From IMG/VR virus record IMGVR_UViG_2698536312_000012: DNA of 12,391 nucleotides. One strand, 5' to 3'. The first letter of the stretch is position 1. Each line of letters begins with the position of its first letter. Positions 26-11,300 of this stretch are shown piece by piece. Origin of the DNA: a virus (lineage: Duplodnaviria > Heunggongvirae > Uroviricota > Caudoviricetes). The position numbers were made by a program, and so were the translations under genes. The notes under the pieces are model-generated. The model saw only the letters and a list, made by a program, of their open reading frames with translations. It was not told the origin of the DNA and did no database searches.

Positions 26-1231
26 TCACCCCGCCACAGAACAATTATTGCTTTTGCCGTTGATGACAATAAAGTTTTTATCGCAGGCGTACCNNNNNNN
101 NNNNNNNNNNNNNNNNNNNNNNNNNNNNNNNNNNNNNNNNNNNNNNNNNNNNNNNNNNNNNNNNNNNNNNNNNNNNNNNNNNNNNNNNNNNNNNNNNNNN
201 NNNNNNNNNNNNNNNNNNNNNNNNNNNNNNNNNNNNNNNNNNNNNNNNNNNNNNNNNNNNNNNNNNNNNNNNNNNNNNNNNNNNNNNNNNNNNNNNNNNN
301 NNNNNNNNNNNNNNNNNNNNNNNNNNNNNNNNNNNNNNNNNNNNNNNNNNNNNNNNNNNNNNNNNNNNNNNNNNNNNNNNNNNNNNNNNNNNNNNNNNNN
401 NNNNNNNNNNNNNNNNNNNNNNNNNNNNNNNNNNNNNNNNNNNNNNNNNNNNNNNNNNNNNNNNNNNNNNNNNNNNNNNNNNNNNNNNNNNNNNNNNNNN
501 NNNNNNNNNNNNNNNNNNNNNNNNNNNNNNNNNNNNNNNNNNNNNNNNNNNNNNNNNNNNNNNNNNNNNNNNNNNNNNNNNNNNNNNNNNNNNNNNNNNN
601 NNNNNNNNNNNNNNNNNNNNNNNNNNNNNNNNNNNNNNNNNNNNNNNNNNNNNNNNNNNNNNNNNNNNNNNNNNNNNNNNNNNNNNNNNNNNNNNNNNNN
701 NNNNNNNNNNNNNNNNNNNNNNNNNNNNNNNNNNNNNNNNNNNNNNNNNNNNNNNNNNNNNNNNNNNNNNNNNNNNNNNNNNNNNNNNNNNNNNNNNNNN
801 NNNNNNNNNNNNNNNNNNNNNNNNNNNNNNNNNNNNNNNNNNNNNNNNNNNNNNNNNNNNNNNNNNNNNNNNNNNNNNNNNNNNNNNNNNNNNNNNNNNN
901 NNNNNNNNNNNNNNNNNNNNNNNNNNNNNNNNNNNNNNNNNNNNNNNNNNNCATCAGCAGGCCTTATCTTTTGTTTAGAGAAAGTCATCTTTACCCAGCT
1001 TTCTCTGGACGCATCATCAGTAAGAGCAGCCTGCGAATCTCCCATACTTACAACCTGGCTGGGCCTTATCCATCGCCCCAGCCCCTCAACCGCACCAGCA
1101 TAAAACATGACAAAAATTGTTTTTGCAGCTATTTCCCGAATTAAATATCCACGATTCTCAGTCCCTTCAGGGAAAATTAATTGTAATCTTTCCCGGATAA
1201 CATTCAATGGGGGAACAACAGGCAGATTCAT
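26..1231 (-). CDS. Methyltransferase-coupled partner protein, candidate restriction endonuclease or other effector; most of the body is masked by N
   Basis: ATG at 1231-1229 overlaps the methyltransferase stop (ATGA), implying translational coupling. The visible N-terminal 93 aa (MNLPVVPPLNVIRERLQLIFPEGTENRGYLIREIAAKTIFV...) look protein-like. The frame is consistent with TGA at 28-26, but continuity through the 858-nt N-run cannot be verified and another frame also stays open to the window edge. Confidence 0.45.
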   Translation of the reverse strand: MNLPVVPPLNVIRERLQLIFPEGTENRGYLIREIAAKTIFVMFYAGAVEGLGRWIRPSQVVSMGDSQAALTDDASRESWVKMTFSKQKIRPADXXXXXXXXXXXXXXXXXXXXXXXXXXXXXXXXXXXXXXXXXXXXXXXXXXXXXXXXXXXXXXXXXXXXXXXXXXXXXXXXXXXXXXXXXXXXXXXXXXXXXXXXXXXXXXXXXXXXXXXXXXXXXXXXXXXXXXXXXXXXXXXXXXXXXXXXXXXXXXXXXXXXXXXXXXXXXXXXXXXXXXXXXXXXXXXXXXXXXXXXXXXXXXXXXXXXXXXXXXXXXXXXXXXXXXXXXXXXXXXXXXXXXXXXXXXXXXXXXXXXXXXXXXXXXXXXXXXXXXXXXXXXXXXYACDKNFIVINGKSNNCSVAG

Positions 1232-3060
1232 GCAATCATCACTCCATAGAAACCAGCGATAGTTCTCTCAATAATCCGTCTGTGGACGCCAGCATCAATT
1301 AACGATTGAATCTCCATCACCTGCTCCAGAGAAGGCAACGGGATTGAATTCAATTCATAGGCCGAAACAGCAACACTTCCGCTTATACACCTGAACGCCC
1401 GATCGACAACATGCGAATTAAGTAGCATATCAATAACATCAGGGCGAACCGCAGAGAACAATCCGTTTGAATATACAATATTAATATGGTTTTCAACTAC
1501 TACGCCACCAGTTTCATCTATAAATCCCTGAGGTAAAATTGCCGCTAAAATCCTTCTGTCCTGTTCCTTCGATGTTGTCCGCTGAACAAGCACACATTCA
1601 GATTTTGTCACAAGGAAACCCTGTTGTGGGGTTATATCGATATAGGGAACATGATTTTTTCTGTCTGCACTAAAACGAAAACCAGCTGAAGTTATTGATT
1701 CCGCCCAGACTAATGGGTAGCTATTTTTTCCTTTCGTCGTACGCAACTGCGACTTAAATCGATTCCAGACTAACTGACCTGTAGAGACTGAGTATCCCAG
1801 ATCAGCTAAACGCGTAGACATCTGTTTTAATACATTAAGAAAACAGGCATCATCTTTAACGCGTGGCAAAAGCCACGTTGCTCCACCTTTTTCTATATCA
1901 ACATTACCTATTTTCTCAATTTTTGCTTTGTTCAACCCCTTAGGGACAAGTGAGGATACCTGGGCCCGAACTTTATGTTCTCCCGCCTTGAATGCTGTCA
2001 ACATTGTTTCCTGGAGAACATCGTCAAAGACCCCATCCCTGTCAGTGACGAAATCAAGGGCATACGGAGTAGTTTTTTCGGTCAAAAGGGTTCGCAGCGC
2101 GGTGAAATACTGCCCACCAAGAAAAGAAGTTGGCGTAAGAAATGCAATAACTCCTGTTTTCTCTTTAACCATGCGAACAGCTAAGTCGGTGAACAATCCA
2201 TATAGATTTGCATGACCAAATAACGAACGAGAATATTTTTCTCTCGTTTTAATATCGAGAGTGACACGTCCGTAAGGCGGATTCCCTACCACAAGATCAT
2301 AACCAGAAAATTTATCTTGCTGAAGCGCATCAGCAACAATAATTGTATCTTCAGGCAATCTACGTTTTACCTTTACACATAGTGGCATTAGTACAGATTC
2401 GAGCAATACCAAACTCATCCAAGCCGCAAATGGATCGATTTCTATCCCCTTTAAACGACGACTGATTCTCCTCAACATCCATTCAGGGGAAGACCCCTTG
2501 TCTTTTTTTAACATTCGAATGGCTACTGGTGCCAAAAATGCACCGCCACCACACGCAGGATCAATAACCGATGCATGAGAAAAATCAACACCAGACTTTT
2601 CAGCCAGGTCCAAGAGACGCGCTACCAAAGGTGGGGGGGTATAGTAAGCCCCCAATTCCGAACGGTAAGCGGATGGCAGCATTACCGTATAAATTGACCC
2701 AATCAGATATCCAGCGTCCTCCGCCGGAAATTGAGCAATAAGCTCACCTGTTCGTTCAGCGAGCTCGCGTGCATCACATGGAATGTCTTCTATGTAAACA
2801 GTGTGCGGTACTGCCCTCATTTTAATGCTGCTTTTTTGCTTTTTTGCAAGGGTATCCCAATATGCAGCTACGATGCTGAAGCAGTATGAGCGGGCATGCA
2901 TCAACCTTGACTGCCCGGTTTTGTAATTGCCCGCATAACCTTTGGCCATGGCTTTACAAGTTTGATATCTTTCCAGATTAGAAAACTCATTATCTGTAAA
3001 AAAATCAAAATGTTGCACATTCATAATGTAAAATCCTAATGTATCAAACATGCGGGCCAT
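1228..3060 (-). CDS. N6-adenine DNA methyltransferase, gamma class (Eco57I/TaqI-like), with C-terminal target-recognition region
   Basis: 610-aa ORF with motif order GAYYTPPPLV (motif X-like), DPACGGGAFL (AdoMet motif I) and VVGNPPYGR (catalytic motif IV), then a ~300-aa C-terminal region with TaqI-C-like features (GQLVWNRF). Start could be ATG 3060 or 3051; both have a weak RBS. Confidence 0.9.
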   Translation of the reverse strand: MARMFDTLGFYIMNVQHFDFFTDNEFSNLERYQTCKAMAKGYAGNYKTGQSRLMHARSYCFSIVAAYWDTLAKKQKSSIKMRAVPHTVYIEDIPCDARELAERTGELIAQFPAEDAGYLIGSIYTVMLPSAYRSELGAYYTPPPLVARLLDLAEKSGVDFSHASVIDPACGGGAFLAPVAIRMLKKDKGSSPEWMLRRISRRLKGIEIDPFAAWMSLVLLESVLMPLCVKVKRRLPEDTIIVADALQQDKFSGYDLVVGNPPYGRVTLDIKTREKYSRSLFGHANLYGLFTDLAVRMVKEKTGVIAFLTPTSFLGGQYFTALRTLLTEKTTPYALDFVTDRDGVFDDVLQETMLTAFKAGEHKVRAQVSSLVPKGLNKAKIEKIGNVDIEKGGATWLLPRVKDDACFLNVLKQMSTRLADLGYSVSTGQLVWNRFKSQLRTTKGKNSYPLVWAESITSAGFRFSADRKNHVPYIDITPQQGFLVTKSECVLVQRTTSKEQDRRILAAILPQGFIDETGGVVVENHINIVYSNGLFSAVRPDVIDMLLNSHVVDRAFRCISGSVAVSAYELNSIPLPSLEQVMEIQSLIDAGVHRRIIERTIAGFYGVMIA

Positions 3061-3771: not shown

Positions 3772-4095
3772 TTATGTTCTGATGTCTGTCGTAGCNNNNN
3801 NNNNNNNNNNNNNNNNNNNNNNNNNNNNNNNNNNNNNNNNNNNNNNNNNNNNNNNNNNNNNNNNNNNNNNNNNNNNNNNNNNNNNNNNNNNNNNNNNNNN
3901 NNNNNNNNNNNNNNNNNNNNNNNNNNNNNNNNNNNNNNNNNNNNNNNNNNNNNNNNNNNNNNNNNNNNNNNNNNNNNNNNNNNNNNNNNNNNNNNNNNNN
4001 NNNNNNNNNNNNNNNNNNNNNNNNNNNNNNNNNNNNNNNNNNNNNNNNNNNNCCTTAATTTTTTCCCGCTCTTCCTGTGTAAATACTTTTGCCAT
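3772..4095 (-). CDS. Hypothetical small protein (about 107 aa), mostly masked by N
   Basis: ATG at 4095 lies 17 nt after the stop of the upstream gene; visible N-terminus MAKVFTQEEREKIK and C-terminus ATTDIRT-stop are in one frame if the N-run length is true. The interior cannot be checked. Confidence 0.35.
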   Translation of the reverse strand: MAKVFTQEEREKIKXXXXXXXXXXXXXXXXXXXXXXXXXXXXXXXXXXXXXXXXXXXXXXXXXXXXXXXXXXXXXXXXXXXXXXXXXXXXXXXXXXXXXXATTDIRT

Positions 4096-4110
4096 AAGCG
4101 CCCCCGGCAA

Positions 4111-4836
4111 TCACTTTTCCGACACAATACGACCGGAGGAATCGACAATCTGTCGAACAATATCCCGGTGCTTGTTCAGCTCCCGCAACGCGGCGCAGAC
4201 ACGCTCCCACTTCTGGACATGACTTTTCGCCCGACGCAGTTCGCGGTTTGCCATATGCAGCGATGGTAAAACCAGGTCATCCGCTTGCGTTTCGGTGAAC
4301 GATGGCAACGACTGCACAATGTCCGCCACAGTTTCTGTTTTAATTTCTTCCTGTGTTGCAGCTTCCTGTACCGGTAACGCAACACCTGCTGGCTGAGGAA
4401 AGACTTTACCATCCGTTTCCGCTATGGATGCGGCTTTCGGCTCTGCCGGTAAATCAGCGCCCGGTATGCAGTACCGAAATTTACCGCCCTGATTCACGCG
4501 AATCAGACGCCCTTTGCTGATTGCCATGGCCAGCGATGAATTCGCCCGGCGGGAGGTAATCCCGAACATCAGTGCCAGCTCATCCGCCGTTTGTGGGCCA
4601 TGTTGTTCAATCGCCTCAGTCAGCATTTGCGCTGTCACTTTCGGTACCGGTGACACTGGTTCACTTTCACCAGCCTGAATCAGCCACCACATCGAACCCT
4701 TGTTATCCGCTTCACCACGGCGCTTCAGTTTCCACAGTTCGTTGACCGCATCTTCACGGCTGATTCCAAGGCGGGACGCCACCACATGTGAAGAGGCTCT
4801 TTTCAGTGCTTTCAGTGCGTCAAATACAGTTTCCAT
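4111..4836 (-). CDS. Hypothetical phage protein with two winged-helix-like segments
   Basis: ATG at 4836 preceded by GGAGG at about 9 nt, immediately after the DnaC-like stop (4858-4860). 241 aa, acidic central linker, protein-like composition. Confidence 0.6.
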
Positions 4837-4857: not shown

Positions 4858-5604
4858 TTACTTCACAACTCCCGGAAAGCTGACATTTGAACGCCAGCTA
4901 TCCCAGTTAAACGTCACCCACCGACAACCGTTCATGGTCATGCGGTCCATAATCCTCTCACCAAGAAGCGTGCTCATTGCGGCATGATTCAGGTTTGTTA
5001 ACATCCCGACACTGCACAGTGATGCTGTCCGGCGATCAATTATCTGGTGCAATACCACCTGCTCGTTTTTCGTCTCCCGCTGAATGCCTATTTCATCCAG
5101 GACCAGCAAATCAACCCCGCAAAGCTCCTGTAAAAATTTTTCACCGGATTTGCCGTTGTCGTAGCTGTCATGCAACACGCTCATGACATCAGACACGGTG
5201 ACGATAATCACGCTGCGCCCCTTCGCCATCAGCCAGTTACCCATCGCCGCTGCAAGGTGATTTTTCCCGGTGCCGGTTTTACCGCTGAACACAAAATTCG
5301 TGCACCCGGTCATCAGTTCGTCAGCTATGGATTTGGCCTGGCTCAGCGCGTATTTTTGCCCGTCGTTCTGCACCTGATAATTCGCAAACGAGCATTTGCT
5401 GTGCAGAGGCTGGATGCCCGAACGATTCAGGATTTTTTCCACCCGCAACTGGCGATTCTGGCGGTTAATCTCCTCGCTGCGTTTTCGTCCTTCAGCAAGT
5501 TGCCATTCCCGCCACTCCTCCACCGTCCGGTACGGTGGAACCGCCCCCTGTGGTGCAAGTCTGTGAATACGTTCAAGAACCCCGGCTGCCGCAATGTTTT
5601 TCAT
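4858..5604 (-). CDS. DnaC/IstB-like replication ATPase (helicase-loader analog, YdaV-like)
   Basis: Walker A GKTGTGKNHLA and Walker B LLVLDEIG; 248 aa; lies directly downstream of the O-like gene; RBS GGGGGTGA upstream of ATG 5604. Confidence 0.85.
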   Translation of the reverse strand: MKNIAAAGVLERIHRLAPQGAVPPYRTVEEWREWQLAEGRKRSEEINRQNRQLRVEKILNRSGIQPLHSKCSFANYQVQNDGQKYALSQAKSIADELMTGCTNFVFSGKTGTGKNHLAAAMGNWLMAKGRSVIIVTVSDVMSVLHDSYDNGKSGEKFLQELCGVDLLVLDEIGIQRETKNEQVVLHQIIDRRTASLCSVGMLTNLNHAAMSTLLGERIMDRMTMNGCRWVTFNWDSWRSNVSFPGVVK

Positions 5605-6746: not shown

Positions 6747-7172
6747 TCAATGTACTGCCACAGCATTTCCTGCCGGGCCACCACGGTTCATCTGATTGAA
6801 ACCGGCGATTGCCACTGCGACAAAATCATCAGCGTCTCTCACCAGTCGTTCATGCGTCTCCACCAGTTCCCGAAAATAAGCTGAACTGTGGCTGCGCATT
6901 CGAGCCACCAGCGGAGGTGGCATTGCCCTTTCGATCGCAGGTAACAACGCCTGAATTTTTTCAACAGCGTCAGGGGTGTCTTTATCCAGCCAACGGAAAA
7001 TCTTTTGGGTGTTGAGATAAAGCGTGTTGTGCTTGCTGTCGTTATGCAGAACCGGAAACGTCATTCCCAGTTCGAAATAAACCCTGGTTATTTCAGCTGC
7101 CGGAACTTTTTCACCGTCCGGATGCGCCCAGGCTTTCATCGCCATGCGGATGTGTTCATGCTTGATTTTCAT
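6747..7172 (-). CDS. ydaT: YdaT-like regulator (functional CII analog of Rac/CP-933P-type prophages)
   Basis: 141 aa; start ATG 7172 overlaps the upstream stop (ATGA); the sequence (MKIKHEHIRMAMKAWAHPDGEKVPAAEITRVYFELG...) matches my recollection of YdaT; position is immediately downstream of the Cro-like gene. Confidence 0.7.
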   Translation of the reverse strand: MKIKHEHIRMAMKAWAHPDGEKVPAAEITRVYFELGMTFPVLHNDSKHNTLYLNTQKIFRWLDKDTPDAVEKIQALLPAIERAMPPPLVARMRSHSSAYFRELVETHERLVRDADDFVAVAIAGFNQMNRGGPAGNAVAVH

Positions 7173-7432
7173 GAATCAACCCCCGCCGATGGTTGTGTGT
7201 TAGCCTGAAACTCAGCAGGCAAGCCGTCAGTTGGGTTGGGGTAGGTTTTACTGTCAATCTCATGTGGGGTCACCACCCATCCCGTTGCTTCACACCAACG
7301 TAATATTTTTTCTCCTGTAAGTTTTGCACGCCCCGTTATAACGTGGCTGACCATCCCTTGGGATGCGCCAACAATCTCAGCAAATGAACTCTGGGTTATA
7401 TGAAAATGATGCAAATATTCTCCAAGATTCAT
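7169..7432 (-). CDS. ydaS: Cro-like HTH regulator (YdaS-like)
   Basis: HTH segment ITQSSFAEIVGASQGMVSHVITG; first gene of the leftward operon leaving the divergent operator region; ATG 7432 preferred over the TTG at 7459 used by the ORF track. Confidence 0.7.
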   Translation of the reverse strand: MNLGEYLHHFHITQSSFAEIVGASQGMVSHVITGRAKLTGEKILRWCEATGWVVTPHEIDSKTYPNPTDGLPAEFQANTQPSAGVDS

Positions 7433-7468
7433 AATCCGCCCTATGTGATGTGTTACCAATGCATAATT

Positions 7469-7533
7469 AATAGCACTGTTATTTTTAAAAGTAAATAGTG
7501 ATGCTATTTCAAAGTGATTAGCAATCTTATTAG
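7469..7533. promoter_or_regulatory. Divergent operator/promoter region with three related operator sites
   Basis: aATAGCactgTTATTt (7469-7484), aaATAGtgatgCTATTt (7493-7509), aTTAGCaatcTTATT (7518-7532); about 24-26 bp spacing; leftward promoter candidate TTTACT-17-TATTAA overlaps the sites. Confidence 0.55.
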
Positions 7534-7543
7534 AATTGGATGT

Positions 7544-8044
7544 ATGAAAAGAAAATCATTGTCAGACACCGACCTCAACGCCGCCAGAAGACTGAAAGAA
7601 ATCTGGATGGCAAAGAAATCTCAGTTGGGATTGACTCAGGAACGTGCGGCGGAAATTATGGGGTTTTCAACACAAGGGGCGGTAAGTCACTACCTAAATG
7701 GTCAAACCCCACTAAACCTTGAGGCTGTTCTAAAGTTTGCTGGCTTACTGAAAGTTCCCCCTGAGTCAATCAGGCCAGACATGGTAGATTTGCTGCAAAT
7801 TGCAAGGATGTATTGTCGAGAACCACAGCAAGATAACATAGTCGCATTACCAGCAGACACAGAACAAACAGAGGATGAACTACCGTTTGCCGTAGAGCCG
7901 ATGGAACGAGATTTAATCCATACGTTCAGAGCTTTTCCGAAAGAAGATCAAGAACACATGCTTCAGGAGATGAAAGATAAAAAAGAATCAATGGATCGTA
8001 CGGTTGCGCGGTGGTTAGCTGCACAAAAAGGCCGTCGCGCCTAA
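7544..8044 (+). CDS. paaR2: HTH (XRE-family) repressor, PaaR2-like regulator at the cI position
   Basis: HTH LTQERAAEIMGFSTQGAVSHYLNG; 166 aa from ATG 7544 (ORF track uses GTG 7514); first gene of a three-gene operon with antitoxin and ParE toxin; divergent from the Cro-like gene. Confidence 0.7.
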   Translation: MKRKSLSDTDLNAARRLKEIWMAKKSQLGLTQERAAEIMGFSTQGAVSHYLNGQTPLNLEAVLKFAGLLKVPPESIRPDMVDLLQIARMYCREPQQDNIVALPADTEQTEDELPFAVEPMERDLIHTFRAFPKEDQEHMLQEMKDKKESMDRTVARWLAAQKGRRA

Positions 8045-8063
8045 ATCAGAGGAGATATGTAAA

Positions 8064-8258
8064 ATGAGTACAGTCCTTTCCCCAATGGTTTCAGAATTTG
8101 AGACAGTTGAGCAAGAAAATAGTTACAACGAATGGCTGCGGGCCAAAGTAGCAGCAAGCCTCGCGGATCCCCGCCCGGCGATTCCGCATGATGAGGTAAT
8201 GGCGGAAATGGAACAAATTATTGCCCAAATTGCTGCTGCAACTCACAGAGGTGAATAA
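8064..8258 (+). CDS. paaA2: Small antitoxin (PaaA2-like) of the ParE toxin
   Basis: 64 aa; AGGAGA SD 9 nt upstream; stop overlaps the toxin start (TAATG); acidic, helix-prone sequence typical of antitoxins. Confidence 0.75.
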   Translation: MSTVLSPMVSEFETVEQENSYNEWLRAKVAASLADPRPAIPHDEVMAEMEQIIAQIAAATHRGE

Positions 8259-8548
8259 TGTTACCCGTTTTATGGCTACCATCTGCTCGTGATGATTTGC
8301 GCCAGATCGTAGCCTACATAGCTAAAGAAAATCCCGCGGCAGCACGCAGAATGAAAATTCGAATTGAAACATCCGTTTTGCCGCTCACAGAGCATCCTTA
8401 CCTGTATCCTCCAAGCGAGCGAGTTCTTGGTCTTCGTGAAATTGTAACTCATCCTAACTACATCATCCTTTACCGAGTAACAGCATCAAGCATAGAAGTA
8501 GTAAATATTGTGCATTCTCGAAGACAGTATCCAGGCAAAAACAGTTAA
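8258..8548 (+). CDS. parE2: ParE/RelE-superfamily toxin (ParE2-like)
   Basis: 96 aa; ParE-like segments WLPSARDDLRQIVAYIAKENPAAARRM and EVVNIVHSRRQYP; translationally coupled to the upstream antitoxin. Confidence 0.85.
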   Translation: MLPVLWLPSARDDLRQIVAYIAKENPAAARRMKIRIETSVLPLTEHPYLYPPSERVLGLREIVTHPNYIILYRVTASSIEVVNIVHSRRQYPGKNS

Positions 8549-8564
8549 TTATTCCCGCCGACAG

Positions 8565-8587
8565 AACCACCTTAGGGTGGTTTTTTC
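8565..8587 (+). terminator. Rho-independent terminator of the repressor-antitoxin-toxin operon
   Basis: 7-bp stem aaccacc / ggtggtt with loop ttag, followed by a T-run (tttttt). Confidence 0.7.
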
Positions 8588-8603
8588 TTGCCCCAACAAA
8601 AAC

Positions 8604-8647
8604 AATAGCGATGCTATTTACATCAAAAAATAATGATGCTATTTTTT
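8604..8647. promoter_or_regulatory. Second operator cluster (two sites) with candidate rightward promoter for the ydfA-dicF-dicB operon
   Basis: aATAGCgatgCTATTt (8604-8619) and aATAAtgatgCTATTt (8630-8645), same ATAG-N5-CTAT motif as at 7469-7533; TTTACA-17-TATTTT overlaps the second site. Confidence 0.5.
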
Positions 8648-8824
8648 CAGGCGTCAACCCACCCCGCCCCACAGAATGCAGGGCAATACTTCGAGTTACC
8701 AGACAGTGGTCAGGGGTTAAGTAGCCAGCCCGAGGCGTAAGAACATGACGGCAGGGTTCAATCTTTAACTATGCAGCAGGTTTTTTGTTCCGCCACCCCG
8801 GCGTTAAGGGGAAATGAGGTCAGC

Positions 8825-8977
8825 ATGGATACTATCGATCTTGGCAACAACGAATCTCTGGTGTGCGGCGTGTTCCCTAACCAGGATGGAACGTTTACCG
8901 CCATGACGTATACCAAAAGCAAAACGTTTAAAACCGAATCTGGCGCGCGTTGCTGGTTAGCCAGAAACACTGACTGA
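8825..8977 (+). CDS. ydfA: YdfA-like small protein (Qin-type dicB operon, first gene)
   Basis: ATG 8825 with GAGGT SD 5 nt upstream; 50 aa (MDTIDLGNNESLVCGVFPNQDGTFTAMTYTKSK...); the ORF track 5' extension from 8771 lacks an RBS. Confidence 0.6.
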   Translation: MDTIDLGNNESLVCGVFPNQDGTFTAMTYTKSKTFKTESGARCWLARNTD

Positions 8978-9708: not shown

Positions 9709-9764
9709 TTGATTGGTACCTTTGGCGGCATCAGTTTCATTGCTGGCTGATGTCCGCCCTTTTT
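9709..9764 (+). ncRNA. dicF: DicF-like small RNA with intrinsic terminator
   Basis: tttggcggcatcagtttcattgctggctgatgtccgccctttttaaagtgaattttgtgatg closely resembles my recollection of K-12 DicF and its 3' flank; hairpin GGCGGCATCAG / CTGATGtCCGCC followed by a T-run; located between the ydfA-like gene and dicB as in Qin. Confidence 0.7.
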
Positions 9765-10060
9765 AAAGTGAATTTTGTGATGCGGTGAATGCGGCTCAGC
9801 GCACGCGGCACAGTTAAAAAGCGATTAGTTCCCCCGTATCGGGTGGTTATGGGTTTCCCTGTATCCGGCGTTAATTGTTAACTGGTTAACGTCACCTGGA
9901 GGCACCAGGCACCGCATCAACAAAGTTCACTTCGGTGATGAAAGGAAAGAGAAAATGTTGAATGTAGCTATTGAAAACCAGAACGGGTGGAATTATAGTG
10001 CACCTGCACCTTATAAAACGGGTGCCGGGCGTGGAAACCCGAACGTTACTCGAGCGCATA

Positions 10061-10082
10061 GCCGCGCTGAAGCGGTTTTTTT
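10061..10082 (+). terminator. Candidate intrinsic terminator or attenuator hairpin in the Rha leader
   Basis: agCCGCgctgaaGCGG followed by seven T; additional flanking complementarity cgcata / tatgcg; short stem, so weak. Confidence 0.3.
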
Positions 10083-10251
10083 ATGCGTAATGCACAGCTC
10101 CATTCAAATTATGGTGGGATGTGCAGGGCAGTCGCAAGACTGGCCGGGTTCTCGAGTGACCGGTATTTCCACCCCTGTACGTCACACCACCCTTATGGTC
10201 GTGGAAAACCTCGGTGGTGAGTTAATTAACTTATCACTCGAGGATGCCATC

Positions 10252-10809
10252 ATGGCTACTATCCCTGCCCTTTCTCACCCTGACGTAACCATCGAAAATG
10301 GTCGCGCTGTCACTACGTCTATTGCGATCGCAGAGTTCTTTGGCAAGCGTCACGACAATGTGTTACGTGCCATCGCAAATACTGAATGCTCACCTGAATT
10401 TAACGCCCTCAATTTTGAGGACGTCACCTACACTGACGCCAAAGGCGAAAAACGCCCGATGTACCAAATCACCAAAAACGGCTTCGTTTTCCTGGTGATG
10501 GGATTCACTGGCAAAAAAGCCGCTGCATTTAAAGAAGCCTACATTGCTGAGTTCGATCGCATGGAGGCCGAACTGCGCCAGAATAACACCCCACCCACTG
10601 ACAAAATAATTCCAGGCGATGGCCGCACCCTGGTTGTTCACTTCGACGAACGCGGCAACATCAGATTCACCGAAACCGTTCCTGATGGCGCACGGGTCTG
10701 TACCATGGAGACTTTCCGGTTTTATCTGGAAGAACAGGGATGGACTCTTGTTAACCGGGGCGCAATTAAAAATATGACTGTAGAGCAATTACTCAAAATT
10801 CATTGTTGA
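10252..10809 (+). CDS. rha: Rha-family phage regulatory protein
   Basis: Rha-like segment AIAEFFGKRHDNVLRAIAN...MYQITKNGFVFLVMGFTGKKAAAFKEAYIAEFDRME; ATG 10252 with AGGA SD 7 nt upstream puts the domain near the N-terminus. The same frame is open back to an ATG at 9955 with a strong SD (AGGAAAGAG), so a 284-aa form is possible. Confidence 0.7.
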   Translation: MATIPALSHPDVTIENGRAVTTSIAIAEFFGKRHDNVLRAIANTECSPEFNALNFEDVTYTDAKGEKRPMYQITKNGFVFLVMGFTGKKAAAFKEAYIAEFDRMEAELRQNNTPPTDKIIPGDGRTLVVHFDERGNIRFTETVPDGARVCTMETFRFYLEEQGWTLVNRGAIKNMTVEQLLKIHC

Positions 10810-10819
10810 GGACGCGATA

Positions 10820-11008
10820 ATGGAAACGTTATTACCAAACGTTAATACGACTGAAGGTTGTTTTGAAATTGGTGTCACTATCAGTAACCCTGTATTTACT
10901 GAAGATGCCATTAACAAGAGAAAACACGAACGGGAGCTATTAAATAAAATATGCATTGTTTCAATGCTGGCTCGTTTGCGTCTGATGCAAAAAGGATGCT
11001 GGCGATGA
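10820..11008 (+). CDS. dicB: DicB cell-division inhibitor
   Basis: 62 aa (METLLPNVNTTEGCFEIGVTISNPVFTEDAINKRK...CIVSMLARLRLM) matching my recollection of DicB; GAGGA SD 7 nt upstream; stop overlaps the next start (ATGA). Confidence 0.8.
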   Translation: METLLPNVNTTEGCFEIGVTISNPVFTEDAINKRKHERELLNKICIVSMLARLRLMQKGCWR

Positions 11009-11196: not shown

Positions 11197-11300
11197 AGCA
11201 GCCACGTAATAAATATCCGGTTTCATTTTTATATGCCAGCAATGGCAGGGATTTGTTCACCCTTAAATCTGTAATGAGGTTAAAACAAAATGAGTNNAAA

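Follow-up and report, generated by a model that had tools for sequence, protein, structure and literature searches.

The dicA-dicC/dicBp locus of prophage Qin in Escherichia coli K-12, reportedly described by Bejar et al. in 1988 and by Yun in 2012, and the paaR2-ydaS region of prophage CP-933P in E. coli O157:H7 are the closest described counterparts of the locus analyzed here. In CP-933P, PaaR2 and YdaS footprint the paaR2-ydaS intergenic region (OR), and both proteins repress PR, PRM, and PL (PMC8630535). The PL promoter, which lies downstream of parE2, is repressed approximately 100-fold by PaaR2 and by YdaS, and basal PaaR2 suffices for this repression; low PaaR2 activates PRM, the paaR2 mRNA is leaderless, and PaaR2 is an octamer (PMC8630535). 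The locus is addictive in plasmid stabilization, with ParE toxicity and its neutralization by PaaA2 having been shown; activation of ParE2 was detected in neither state of the switch, and the authors favor an addiction/stabilization role (PMC8630535). A third regulator, YdaT, footprints at TTGATT-N6-AATCAA (PMC9986795). In Qin, deletion of dicA derepresses dicBp 22-fold, and deletion of dicC is without effect (PMC10448788).

Positions 7169 to 8645 of the 12,391-nucleotide stretch of DNA analyzed in full (the window) are best explained as the lambdoid immunity (lysis-lysogeny switch) region of a DicA/PaaR2-lineage prophage, an explanation to which, taken as a whole, we give a probability of about 0.8. 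The region is an uncharacterized variant of a design already shown by experiment in CP-933P and Qin, and the prophage probably comes from Shigella sonnei or E. coli.

Genes of the region and their counterparts

The ydaT-like and Cro-like genes lie on the minus strand and the repressor, PaaA2, and ParE genes on the plus strand, followed by a terminator, a PL-like promoter, and the genes from ydfA to dicB. The features of this part of the map were as follows.

6747..7172, minus strand: ydaT-like gene, CII analogue, 141 aa (Pfam YdaT_toxin, E 5e-9; PHROG 163 CII-like activator, E 3e-40)
7162..7179, no strand: predicted YdaT operator (OM-type box), TTGATTTTCATGAATCAA, an exact TTGATT-N6-AATCAA (0.07 expected) at the cro/ydaT junction, in a PRE-like region
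7169..7432, minus strand: Cro-like HTH gene in the YdaS position, 87 aa (HTH_3, E 4e-4; PHROG 35)
7544..8044, plus strand: repressor gene, 166 aa (Pfam HTH_3; lambda-CI-like head, linker, DicA/PaaR2-type tail)
8064..8258, plus strand: PaaA2-family antitoxin gene, 64 aa (PF21217, E 3e-23; PDB 3zbe, E 1e-23)
8258..8548, plus strand: ParE-family toxin gene, 96 aa (PF05016; PDB 5cw7 ParE2, E 7e-37)
8563..8589, plus strand: intrinsic terminator of the repressor-toxin-antitoxin operon, AACCACC-TTAG-GGTGGTT followed by a T-run (fold of -15.1 kcal/mol, z -2.7)
8825..8977, plus strand: ydfA, first gene of the PL/dicB operon (Pfam DUF1391, E 3e-28; annotated ydfA in locus L001)
10820..11008, plus strand: dicB, cell division inhibitor gene in the PL operon (NCBIfam DicB, E 3e-39; Pfam DicB)

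An earlier note on this DNA had placed an HTH protein in the cI position at the head of an operon with a small antitoxin and ParE, and the Pfam and PDB searches agreed. Its description of the operon as PaaR2-PaaA2-ParE2-like holds for PaaA2 and ParE, but the repressor is PaaR2-like only in its C-terminal 44 aa (52% identity by BLASTP, E 5e-15), and its head is lambda-CI-like. Residues 2 to 81 make up the N-terminal HTH domain, which matched the lambda repressor structure PDB 1lmb (E 3e-9) and gave no BLASTP alignment with PaaR2. The C-terminal domain, at approximately residues 112 to 166, is of the DicA/PaaR2 type and 29% identical to that of DicA; the NCBIfam DicA model (PRK09706) scored 32.4 bits (cutoff, 101) and aligned over model positions 74 to 130 only, so that the protein is not a full-length DicA match. 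The fusion of a lambda-CI-like DNA-binding head to a DicA/PaaR2-type tail, as read from these alignments, sets the present allele apart from CP-933P and Qin. The Pfam search returned HTH_3 and HTH_31 and no S24/LexA-like autocleavage domain, and because the repressor lacks this domain, RecA-mediated cleavage would not be expected. Oligomerization through the C-terminal domain is suggested by the octameric state of PaaR2, the one ground for it; a search for a structure of this domain type found none. Residues E33 and E37 of the repressor align with lambda CI Glu34 and Asp38, which we take to be positive-control residues, and the acidic character is kept. A Shigella sonnei protein matches the repressor at 100% identity, and among the sequenced phages searched there was no carrier, the best match being lambda cI at 31% identity.

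The HTH_3 match of the Cro-like protein (20.8 bits) lies under the Pfam gathering score of 23, and the protein has no similarity to CP-933P YdaS. It is 44% identical to the repressor HTH over 36 aa, with recognition helices SQGMVSHVITG (Cro-like) and TQGAVSHYLNG (repressor), and by analogy it would be expected to bind and repress PL as well. A YdaT-family protein and a YdaT box at the cro/ydaT junction, the components of a YdaT/PRE module, are both present, and the sequence flanking the box is that of the PRE933P primer.

The antitoxin belongs to the PaaA2 family and is without a DNA-binding domain. Its gene is preceded by an AGGAG ribosome-binding site, and its stop overlaps the parE start by one nucleotide (ATAATG). 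The repressor, PaaA2, and ParE genes are arranged as a predicted cotranscribed unit, with ParE translationally coupled to PaaA2. The operon terminator claimed earlier was recovered by folding as a hairpin with a T-run, a consensus/pattern terminator scan did not report it, and relatives keep it, L002 and L003 having TTCG as the loop. The dicB operon that had been placed downstream was likewise found, ydfA (DUF1391) and dicB both being detected; no N gene was recognized after PL. An Rha/Ant-like protein, putatively controlled by a C4/IsrK-type RNA, maps to 10255-10809. The leader of approximately 115 nt after PL is conserved with CP-933P, and as a candidate RNA structure it gave no Rfam match and no covariation (1 of 17 pairs, with a positive covariation term).

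CP-933P/Sp12 has the same gene order and strands: ydaT, a Cro analogue, and OR are followed by repressor-PaaA2-ParE, then by a terminator and by PL, which serves dicB. The two YdaT proteins are 77% and the two PaaA2 proteins 67% identical, ParE resembles ParE2, the YdaT box is identical, and the arrangement fits a leaderless repressor mRNA. In contrast, CP-933P has a PaaR2-type head, an unrelated Cro analogue, GTTTAGT-type operator repeats instead of AATAGCA-N-TGCTATT, three OL sites instead of two, and a repressor of 123 aa instead of 166 aa. The present allele would therefore differ from CP-933P in immunity specificity, and because the heads and the Cro proteins are nonhomologous, the analogy with CP-933P is one of architecture and does not extend to a shared protein-DNA pair. 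It is in the homologues CP-933P and Qin that experiments have demonstrated binding, repression, leaderless translation, bistability, and addiction.

Qin resembles the window in its short CI-like repressor, which has no site for RecA cleavage, in its divergent cro-like gene, in the homologous C-terminal domain of its repressor, and in a single operator motif that serves both OR and the ydfA-dicF-dicB promoter. It differs in its DNA-binding head, its operators (TGTTAG-N6-CTAACA), its three OL sites rather than two, and the absence of any gene between dicA and dicBp, where PaaA2-ParE and a terminator are inserted here. The likeness to lambda lies in the homologous CI N-terminal domain, in accessory cargo cotranscribed behind the repressor with OL/PL beyond it, and in operator geometry, the OR3, OR2, and OR1 centers being at -19, -42, and -66 from the leaderless cI start in lambda and at -20, -43, and -68 here. 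Unlike the present locus, lambda has an S24/LexA-like domain in CI, RexAB cargo rather than a type II toxin-antitoxin pair, an OR-OL distance of 2.4 kb rather than approximately 1.1 kb, three OL sites rather than two, and CII where the present locus has YdaT as its analogue.

Predicted operator clusters and promoters and their conservation

All promoters and transcription starts given here are predictions, the starts being expected near 7544, 7460 (minus strand), and 8652. They are interleaved with the operators as follows.

7467..7495, minus strand: predicted PR, with -35 TTTACT (7495-7490), a 17-nt spacer, and -10 TATTAA (7472-7467), read from the sequence
7469..7483, no strand: OR1-like predicted operator, AATAGCACTGTTATT, center at -68 (counted from the ATG of the repressor), in overlap with the PR -10; position unchanged in every related locus
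7494..7508, no strand: OR2-like predicted operator, AATAGTGATGCTATT, center at -43, touching the -35 of PR and of PRM; exact match
7508..7536, plus strand: PRM-like predicted promoter, TTCAAA, 17 nt, TAGAAT (promoter scan)
7517..7531, no strand: OR3-like weak predicted operator, ATTAGCAATCTTATT, center at -20, between the PRM -35 and -10; two mismatches
8604..8618, no strand: OL predicted operator on the -35 side, AATAGCGATGCTATT; exact, its 3' arm entering the PL -35 TTTACA
8617..8645, plus strand: PL/dicBp-like predicted promoter, TTTACA, 17 nt, TG-n-TATTTT (promoter scan)
8629..8643, no strand: OL predicted operator on the -10 side, AATAATGATGCTATT; one mismatch, overlapping the extended -10 TGCTATTTT

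PR matches the consensus weakly and was not reported by a strict consensus promoter scan. It aligns with PL over approximately 50 bp as a paralogous promoter, with operators covering the -35 and -10 of both, and PL corresponds to PL933P and dicBp (PMC8630535, PMC10448788). With 7 nt between the end of the PRM -10 and the ATG at 7544, the repressor mRNA is probably leaderless; no Shine-Dalgarno sequence precedes this ATG.

The motif ATAG-N5-CTAT is the core of a 15- to 17-bp palindrome, AATAGCA-N-TGCTATT. The earlier note had counted three copies in the divergent region and two after the terminator; the two clusters stand, but the copies are not all exact. Exact copies start at 7495 and 8605 (0.08 expected in the window), one-mismatch copies at 7470 (ATAGCACTGTTAT) and 8630 (ATAATGATGCTAT), and the third divergent-region copy, at 7518-7530 (TTAGCAATCTTAT), carries two mismatches. 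The literal count was rejected as evidence, the number of window-wide matches at one mismatch (5, with 2.5 expected) not being significant, and was replaced by the extended pattern AATAG-N5-CTATT together with conservation across loci. A motif search had been named earlier as a check on the clusters; with the extended pattern at one mismatch or fewer it gave 4 matches, with 0.29 expected and none of 200 shuffles reaching 4, and all of them fell inside the two clusters. Matches with two mismatches were not enriched (8, with 4.4 expected); the OR3-like site, despite its two mismatches, keeps both its position and its sequence across 9 distinct loci. A search for LexA boxes returned 5 matches at three mismatches or fewer (2.8 expected), none of them convincing, and the match inside OR was without the CAG arm.

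In the divergent region the site centers lie at 7476, 7501, and 7524, with spacings of 25 and 23 bp; the downstream pair is centered on 8611 and 8636, again with a 25-bp spacing. The 111-bp intergenic region thus contains three phased palindromes over the predicted PR and PRM, as does the OR of a lambdoid immunity region, and a second operator cluster (8604 and 8629; conserved in 9 distinct loci) lies past the repressor operon, over the early-left promoter, again as in lambdoid immunity. The comparison set consisted of the window and 9 further loci with repressor heads 68 to 99% identical; L001 nearly duplicates the window, which leaves 9 distinct loci. All five sites recur across this set, the OR sites at -68/-43/-20 or -67/-42/-19 from the repressor ATG and the OL pair at a spacing of 25 to 26 bp, overlapping the PL -35 and -10. 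This recurrence bears out the OR/OL-like layout that had been claimed. Among the 36 strong sites of the 9 distinct loci (OR3-type sites excluded), the AATA and TATT arms never vary (2 bits), and conservation is lowest at the central base (0.3 bits). Invariant arms with a variable center are the pattern expected of a palindrome contacted by a dimer. The Salmonella locus L033 had been a candidate for a separate operator type; positional analysis ruled this out and placed it in the operator family of the window.

The same repressor head and the same operators at the same positions occur with HigB-HigA cargo in L033 and with HipA-like cargo in L037, and the OL pair tracks the cargo boundary, lying 49 to 124 bp past the ParE or HigA stop and 569 bp past the HipA-like cargo. 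Because the slot varies in its toxin modules while the operator architecture is fixed, the toxin-antitoxin pair appears to be cargo and not a part of the switch. In the heteroimmune type represented by L036, which has a 132-aa repressor, a motif of its own, ACACTTTTAAAGTTAGC, is found at both OR and PL (3 matches, with 0.03 expected), and CP-933P and Qin DicA each have their own motif, again at both OR and PL. OR and OL motifs therefore change jointly across four immunity types. The genes, motif statistics, site positions, conservation, and covariation of motifs are established for the present allele itself. The proposal that one repressor controls both the lytic and the dicB operons gains support from this joint change and from the CP-933P and Qin experiments.

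Alternative explanations

The repressor, paaA2, and parE genes are tightly packed, PaaA2 without a DNA-binding domain needs an outside regulator (PMC8630535), and the original description reportedly treated paaR2-paaA2-parE2 as a tripartite toxin-antitoxin system (Hallez 2010); all of this would suit a self-contained three-component system in which the HTH protein is a dedicated regulator (split antitoxin) of its own promoter only, and the downstream pair of sites is unrelated or belongs to another factor. Such a system would not, however, account for the retention of head, operators, and positions when HigB-HigA or HipA-like cargo replaces ParE, for an OL pair that moves with the cargo boundary, for the same C-terminal tail in DicA, which has no toxin-antitoxin partner, or for PaaA2-ParE relatives in Bartonella and Acetobacteraceae that have no such regulator nearby, and it is very unlikely. 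The PaaA2 search of genome representatives found only loci in Bartonella, Acetobacteraceae, and other alpha- and betaproteobacteria, none with a PaaR/DicA-type regulator; these loci were of no use for operator comparison.

A similarly small chance attaches to the downstream cluster being used solely by the Cro-like protein or another regulator, with the repressor confined to OR. The sites at OL are of the same type as those at OR, and Cro and repressor have the recognition helix in common, so that sequence alone cannot tell which protein occupies OL; it is the homologues that speak against exclusive use by Cro, since in CP-933P both PaaR2, even at its basal level, and YdaS repress PL approximately 100-fold, and in Qin it is the loss of dicA, and not of dicC, that derepresses dicBp. 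An unrepressed PL would, moreover, express DicB and DicF, which are toxic in a lysogen. Least probable of all is that the repeats arose by chance or are a by-product of an AT-rich promoter duplicated between PR and PL, with no role in protein binding. The paralogy of PR and PL over approximately 50 bp means that shared motifs could reflect common descent, and the number of two-mismatch matches is near chance, but neither point meets the excess of matches at one mismatch or fewer, the invariance of the arms around a variable center in loci that are approximately 80% identical overall, the 25- and 23-bp phasing with its lambda-matching geometry, or the fact that in heteroimmune relatives the motif is replaced jointly at both OR and OL.

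Proposed operation of the switch and its cargo

On the reading of the region as a lambdoid immunity switch, dimers of the 166-aa repressor would bind the 15- to 17-bp palindromes through the lambda-CI-like head. Occupancy of the -68 and -43 sites would cover the PR -10 and -35 and keep the Cro-like gene, ydaT, and the replication genes off. The -43 site abuts the PRM -35 and, because its geometry equals that of lambda OR2, would probably activate the leaderless repressor transcript, and the weak -20 site within PRM would allow autorepression at high repressor levels. Approximately 1.1 kb away, past the terminator, the two remaining sites would cover the PL -35 and -10 and silence ydfA, DicF, Rha, and dicB. 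The Cro-like protein, with its near-identical recognition helix, most likely competes for the same sites, and YdaT at its box would fire the PRE-like promoter, which points at the repressor gene. The short DicA/PaaR2-type domain, in place of the LexA-like domain of CI, would presumably provide oligomerization and cooperativity, possibly with OR-OL looping, and presumably renders the repressor RecA insensitive; PRM activation, oligomerization, and looping are features that we infer for the present allele.

PaaA2-ParE would take the place of rexAB, as cargo on the repressor transcript, and is most plausibly an addiction module for the immunity region. The earlier suggestion that the toxin-antitoxin module is tied to the lysogeny decision is sustained as cotranscription from PRM/PRE but not beyond that, ParE2 activation having been detected in neither state of CP-933P.

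The known design, in which a CI-like repressor is cotranscribed with a ParE toxin-antitoxin pair and controls PR, PRM, and PL/dicBp, would thereby extend to a second immunity specificity. Compared with CP-933P, in which the sequences bound by PaaR2 and YdaS have yet to be defined exactly, the present operators are a simple palindrome of 15 to 17 bp arranged much as in lambda, and this cleaner operator set could make the present allele a more tractable model for switching by S24-less repressors. For annotation, the pairs "helix-turn-helix protein" plus "toxin YdaT" and "RelB" plus "ParE" that PGAP and Pfam assign in Shigella and E. coli prophages would mark an immunity region with a toxin-antitoxin passenger.

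A more far-reaching and rather doubtful idea is that the DicA/PaaR2 tail is a portable oligomerization module whose swappable heads bridge OR and OL across an exchangeable cargo bay, so that cargo expression and loop length would be switch parameters and the toxin would enforce retention of the matching immunity cassette in heteroimmune recombination. If this were true, PaaA2-ParE, HigBA, or HipA-like kinase modules would all fill one cargo bay. The head types found with a DicA/PaaR2-type tail included the lambda-CI-like head of the window, the PaaR2-type head, a third type in L036, and two tandem heads in L037.

Gene order and operator motif

The window contained the following features around the repressor gene:

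6747-7172, minus strand: ydaT-family gene
7169-7432, minus strand: HTH gene (Cro-like), 87 aa
7544-8044, plus strand: HTH gene (repressor), 166 aa
8064-8258, plus strand: PaaA2-family antitoxin, 64 aa, starting 19 nt past the repressor gene
8258-8548, plus strand: ParE toxin, 96 aa, with its start codon overlapping the antitoxin stop
8563-8589: hairpin and T-run, 15 nt past the parE stop (folding, -15.1 kcal/mol, z -2.7)

Leftward of ydaT lay an O-like gene and a DnaC/IstB-like replication gene; L001, a near-copy of the window, has a DnaT-like ssDNA-binding domain protein annotated at the O-like position. Downstream of the hairpin were ydfA (DUF1391), a DicF-like RNA, RNAs of the IsrK/C4 type, a Rha-family gene, dicB, and DUF1482. 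Such gene content and order identify the window as a lambdoid early region, and the earlier note had correctly called the HTH repressor, antitoxin, ParE, and dicB operon. At its far end, the rightward operon encoded a 610-aa Eco57I/N6_Mtase-type DNA methyltransferase (1228-3060, minus strand), and masked N runs occupied 94-951 (858 bases), 3796-4052 (257), and 11296-11297 (2).

The motif ATAG-N5-CTAT had been described as occurring three times in the divergent region and twice after the operon terminator, upstream of the dicB operon. Both clusters were confirmed, but only the copies at 7495 and 8605 were exact (0.08 expected in the window); those at 7470 and 8630 had one mismatch, and the third divergent-region copy, at 7518, had two. 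With the arms lengthened by one base and at most one mismatch allowed, the motif search gave 4 matches against 0.29 expected, a number reached in 0 of 200 shuffles, and all four fell within the two clusters. Center-to-center distances were 25 and 23 bp within the divergent region and 25 bp past the terminator.

Promoters, repressor, and Cro-like protein

Predicted promoters accompanied both operator clusters:

7495-7467, reverse strand: PR (cro-like/lytic side), TTTACT-17-TATTAA, read by eye
7508-7536: PRM-like (repressor side), TTCAAA-17-TAGAAT, promoter scan
8617-8645: PL (ydfA to dicB side), TTTACA-17-TG-n-TATTTT, promoter scan

The -10 element of the PRM-like promoter ended 7 nt 5' of the ATG at 7544, with no Shine-Dalgarno sequence. 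PR and PL were paralogous upon alignment, with one operator running into the -35 element and another overlapping the -10 element. This geometry was essentially that of the lambda record, in which the OR3, OR2, and OR1 centers are located at -19, -42, and -66 from the leaderless cI start. Between OR1 and OR2 lay CACTGTTATTTTTAAAAGTA (7474-7493), a weak match to the LexA box with two mismatches and without the CAG arm; it is probably meaningless, because the number of such matches within the window was not above chance.

The repressor was a mosaic. Residues 2 to 81 were lambda CI-like, aligning with the CI N-terminal domain (E 3e-9), basic N-terminal arm included, and E33 and E37 aligned with CI Glu34 and Asp38, a region which we take to be the positive-control patch; these acidic residues make PRM activation from the site at -43 plausible. 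The last ~45 to 55 residues were homologous to the C termini of PaaR2 (52% identity) and DicA (29% identity), the C-terminal part matching positions 74 to 130 of the NCBIfam DicA model, and no S24 peptidase domain was found in the protein. The HTH of the Cro-like protein was 44% identical to that of the repressor, and their recognition helices were nearly the same, which would fit competition for the same sites.

Operator conservation, immunity types, and cargo

Related loci were collected from complete E. coli genomes and from contigs encoding repressor homologues; the collection covered E. coli, E. albertii, Salmonella diarizonae, and a metagenome. Ten loci had repressor heads 68 to 100% identical to that of the window, and nine were distinct (L001 being the near-copy). 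All ten carried sites at -68/-43/-20 (or -67/-42/-19) relative to the repressor ATG, together with a site pair 25 to 26 bp apart beyond the last gene cotranscribed with the repressor. The 36 strong sites of the nine distinct loci, with the OR3-type site left out, gave the palindrome (A)AATAGCA-N-TGCTATT(T), of which ATAG-N5-CTAT is the core; AATA and TATT were invariant (2 bits), and the center was least conserved (0.3 bits). Invariant arms and a variable center within DNA only about 80% identical bear the signature of a dimer-contacted operator.

Relatives with other heads carried other motifs, in every case at both OR and PL. L036, a locus of the 132-aa-repressor type whose C-terminal tail was 78% identical to that of the window repressor, had one copy of ACACTTTTAAAGTTAGC in OR and two past parE, against 0.03 expected; the OR repeat of CP-933P was shared with its PL, and in Qin TGTTAG-N6-CTAACA was present both in the dicA-dicC region and, in two copies, at dicBp. 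Conversely, window-type heads and operators were also found with other cargo downstream of the repressor, the OL pair then lying beyond that cargo:

L033 4612-5339: HigB-HigA (Salmonella diarizonae prophage)
L037 4787-6360: HipA_2 kinase (HipA-like) and DUF3037 (metagenomic contig)

These combinations argue that the operators belong to the repressor/Cro pair and not to the toxin-antitoxin module, and that the rexAB position, occupied here by PaaA2-ParE, takes exchangeable cargo; the slot looks like a bay for swappable toxin or defense genes. The L037 repressor (4001-4735, 244 aa) had two tandem HTH heads, the first of window type (75% identity) and the second of L036 type, followed by a DicA/PaaR tail; the operators found at L037 were all of window type. 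Close PaaA2 relatives (45 to 77% identity) occurred in Bartonella, Acetobacteraceae, and other alpha- and betaproteobacteria (loci L005-L032), where tblastn detected no PaaR/DicA-tail regulator within 3.5 kb.

For CP-933P, Jurenas et al. (PMC8630535) showed that the CI analogue is PaaR2, made from a leaderless mRNA, and that both PaaR2 and YdaS give footprints in the intergenic region and repress PR as well as PRM, PRM being activated at low PaaR2. They further showed that PaaR2 or YdaS represses, ~100-fold, a PL that lies downstream of parE2 and carries matching operators, that YdaT activates a PRE, and that the locus is bistable and addictive, with ParE2 activation absent from both switch states. 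In Qin, dicBp is the PL analogue, repressed by DicA, which has no RecA cleavage site and can be antagonized by the antirepressor Rem (PMC10448788). Conservation, covariation of the OR and PL motifs, and these experiments on homologues support the proposal that one repressor controls both the lytic and dicB operons; the CP-933P and Qin work has already established this model for immunity regions of the class. The window YdaT was 77% identical to that of CP-933P, and the footprinted YdaT box, TTGATT-N6-AATCAA (PMC9986795), was exact at the window cro/ydaT junction, whereas the Cro-like protein was unrelated to YdaS; head, Cro, and operators all differed from those of CP-933P, making this a different immunity specificity.

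A Shigella sonnei protein matched the window repressor at 100% identity. Near-identical alleles were present in only 2 of 5,426 complete E. coli genomes and absent among sequenced phages, and our literature search found no paper on this variant. At least 80% of a 2.3-kb query was found in 72 genomes, most of the matches listed being about 82% identical. Novelty here is limited to a further member with a domain-shuffled repressor, the class itself being already known.

PL operon RNAs and leader

In the 9993-10194 region of the PL operon, Rfam matches above the gathering score placed IsrK at 10006-10082 (61 bits) and C4 antisense RNA at 10107-10194 (71 bits), alongside a subthreshold match to the a1/b1 target. 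Directly 3' was the Rha-family ORF (10255-10809), which also matched PHROG antirepressor families. The arrangement resembles a P1 immI-type c4/ant cassette and, by analogy with Rem for DicA, could be a source of antirepressor for the S24-less repressor. A DicF-like small RNA match (9711-9759) fell short of the gathering score (38.8 against 48 bits). Its position, with the ydfA-side genes on one side and the Rha/dicB genes on the other, is that expected in a dicBF-type operon.

A leader of ~115 nt just 3' of PL (window 8655-8770; also L004 4985-5100 and L036 about 5005-5115) was ~95% conserved across heteroimmune prophages (window, CP-933P, and L036 type), among which the operators and promoter immediately upstream were replaced. 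RNAalifold detected no covariation and Rfam gave no match in the leader, which may act as a nut-like or processing site; its core, AAGTAGCC(A)GCCCGRGGC, was kept even in Salmonella.
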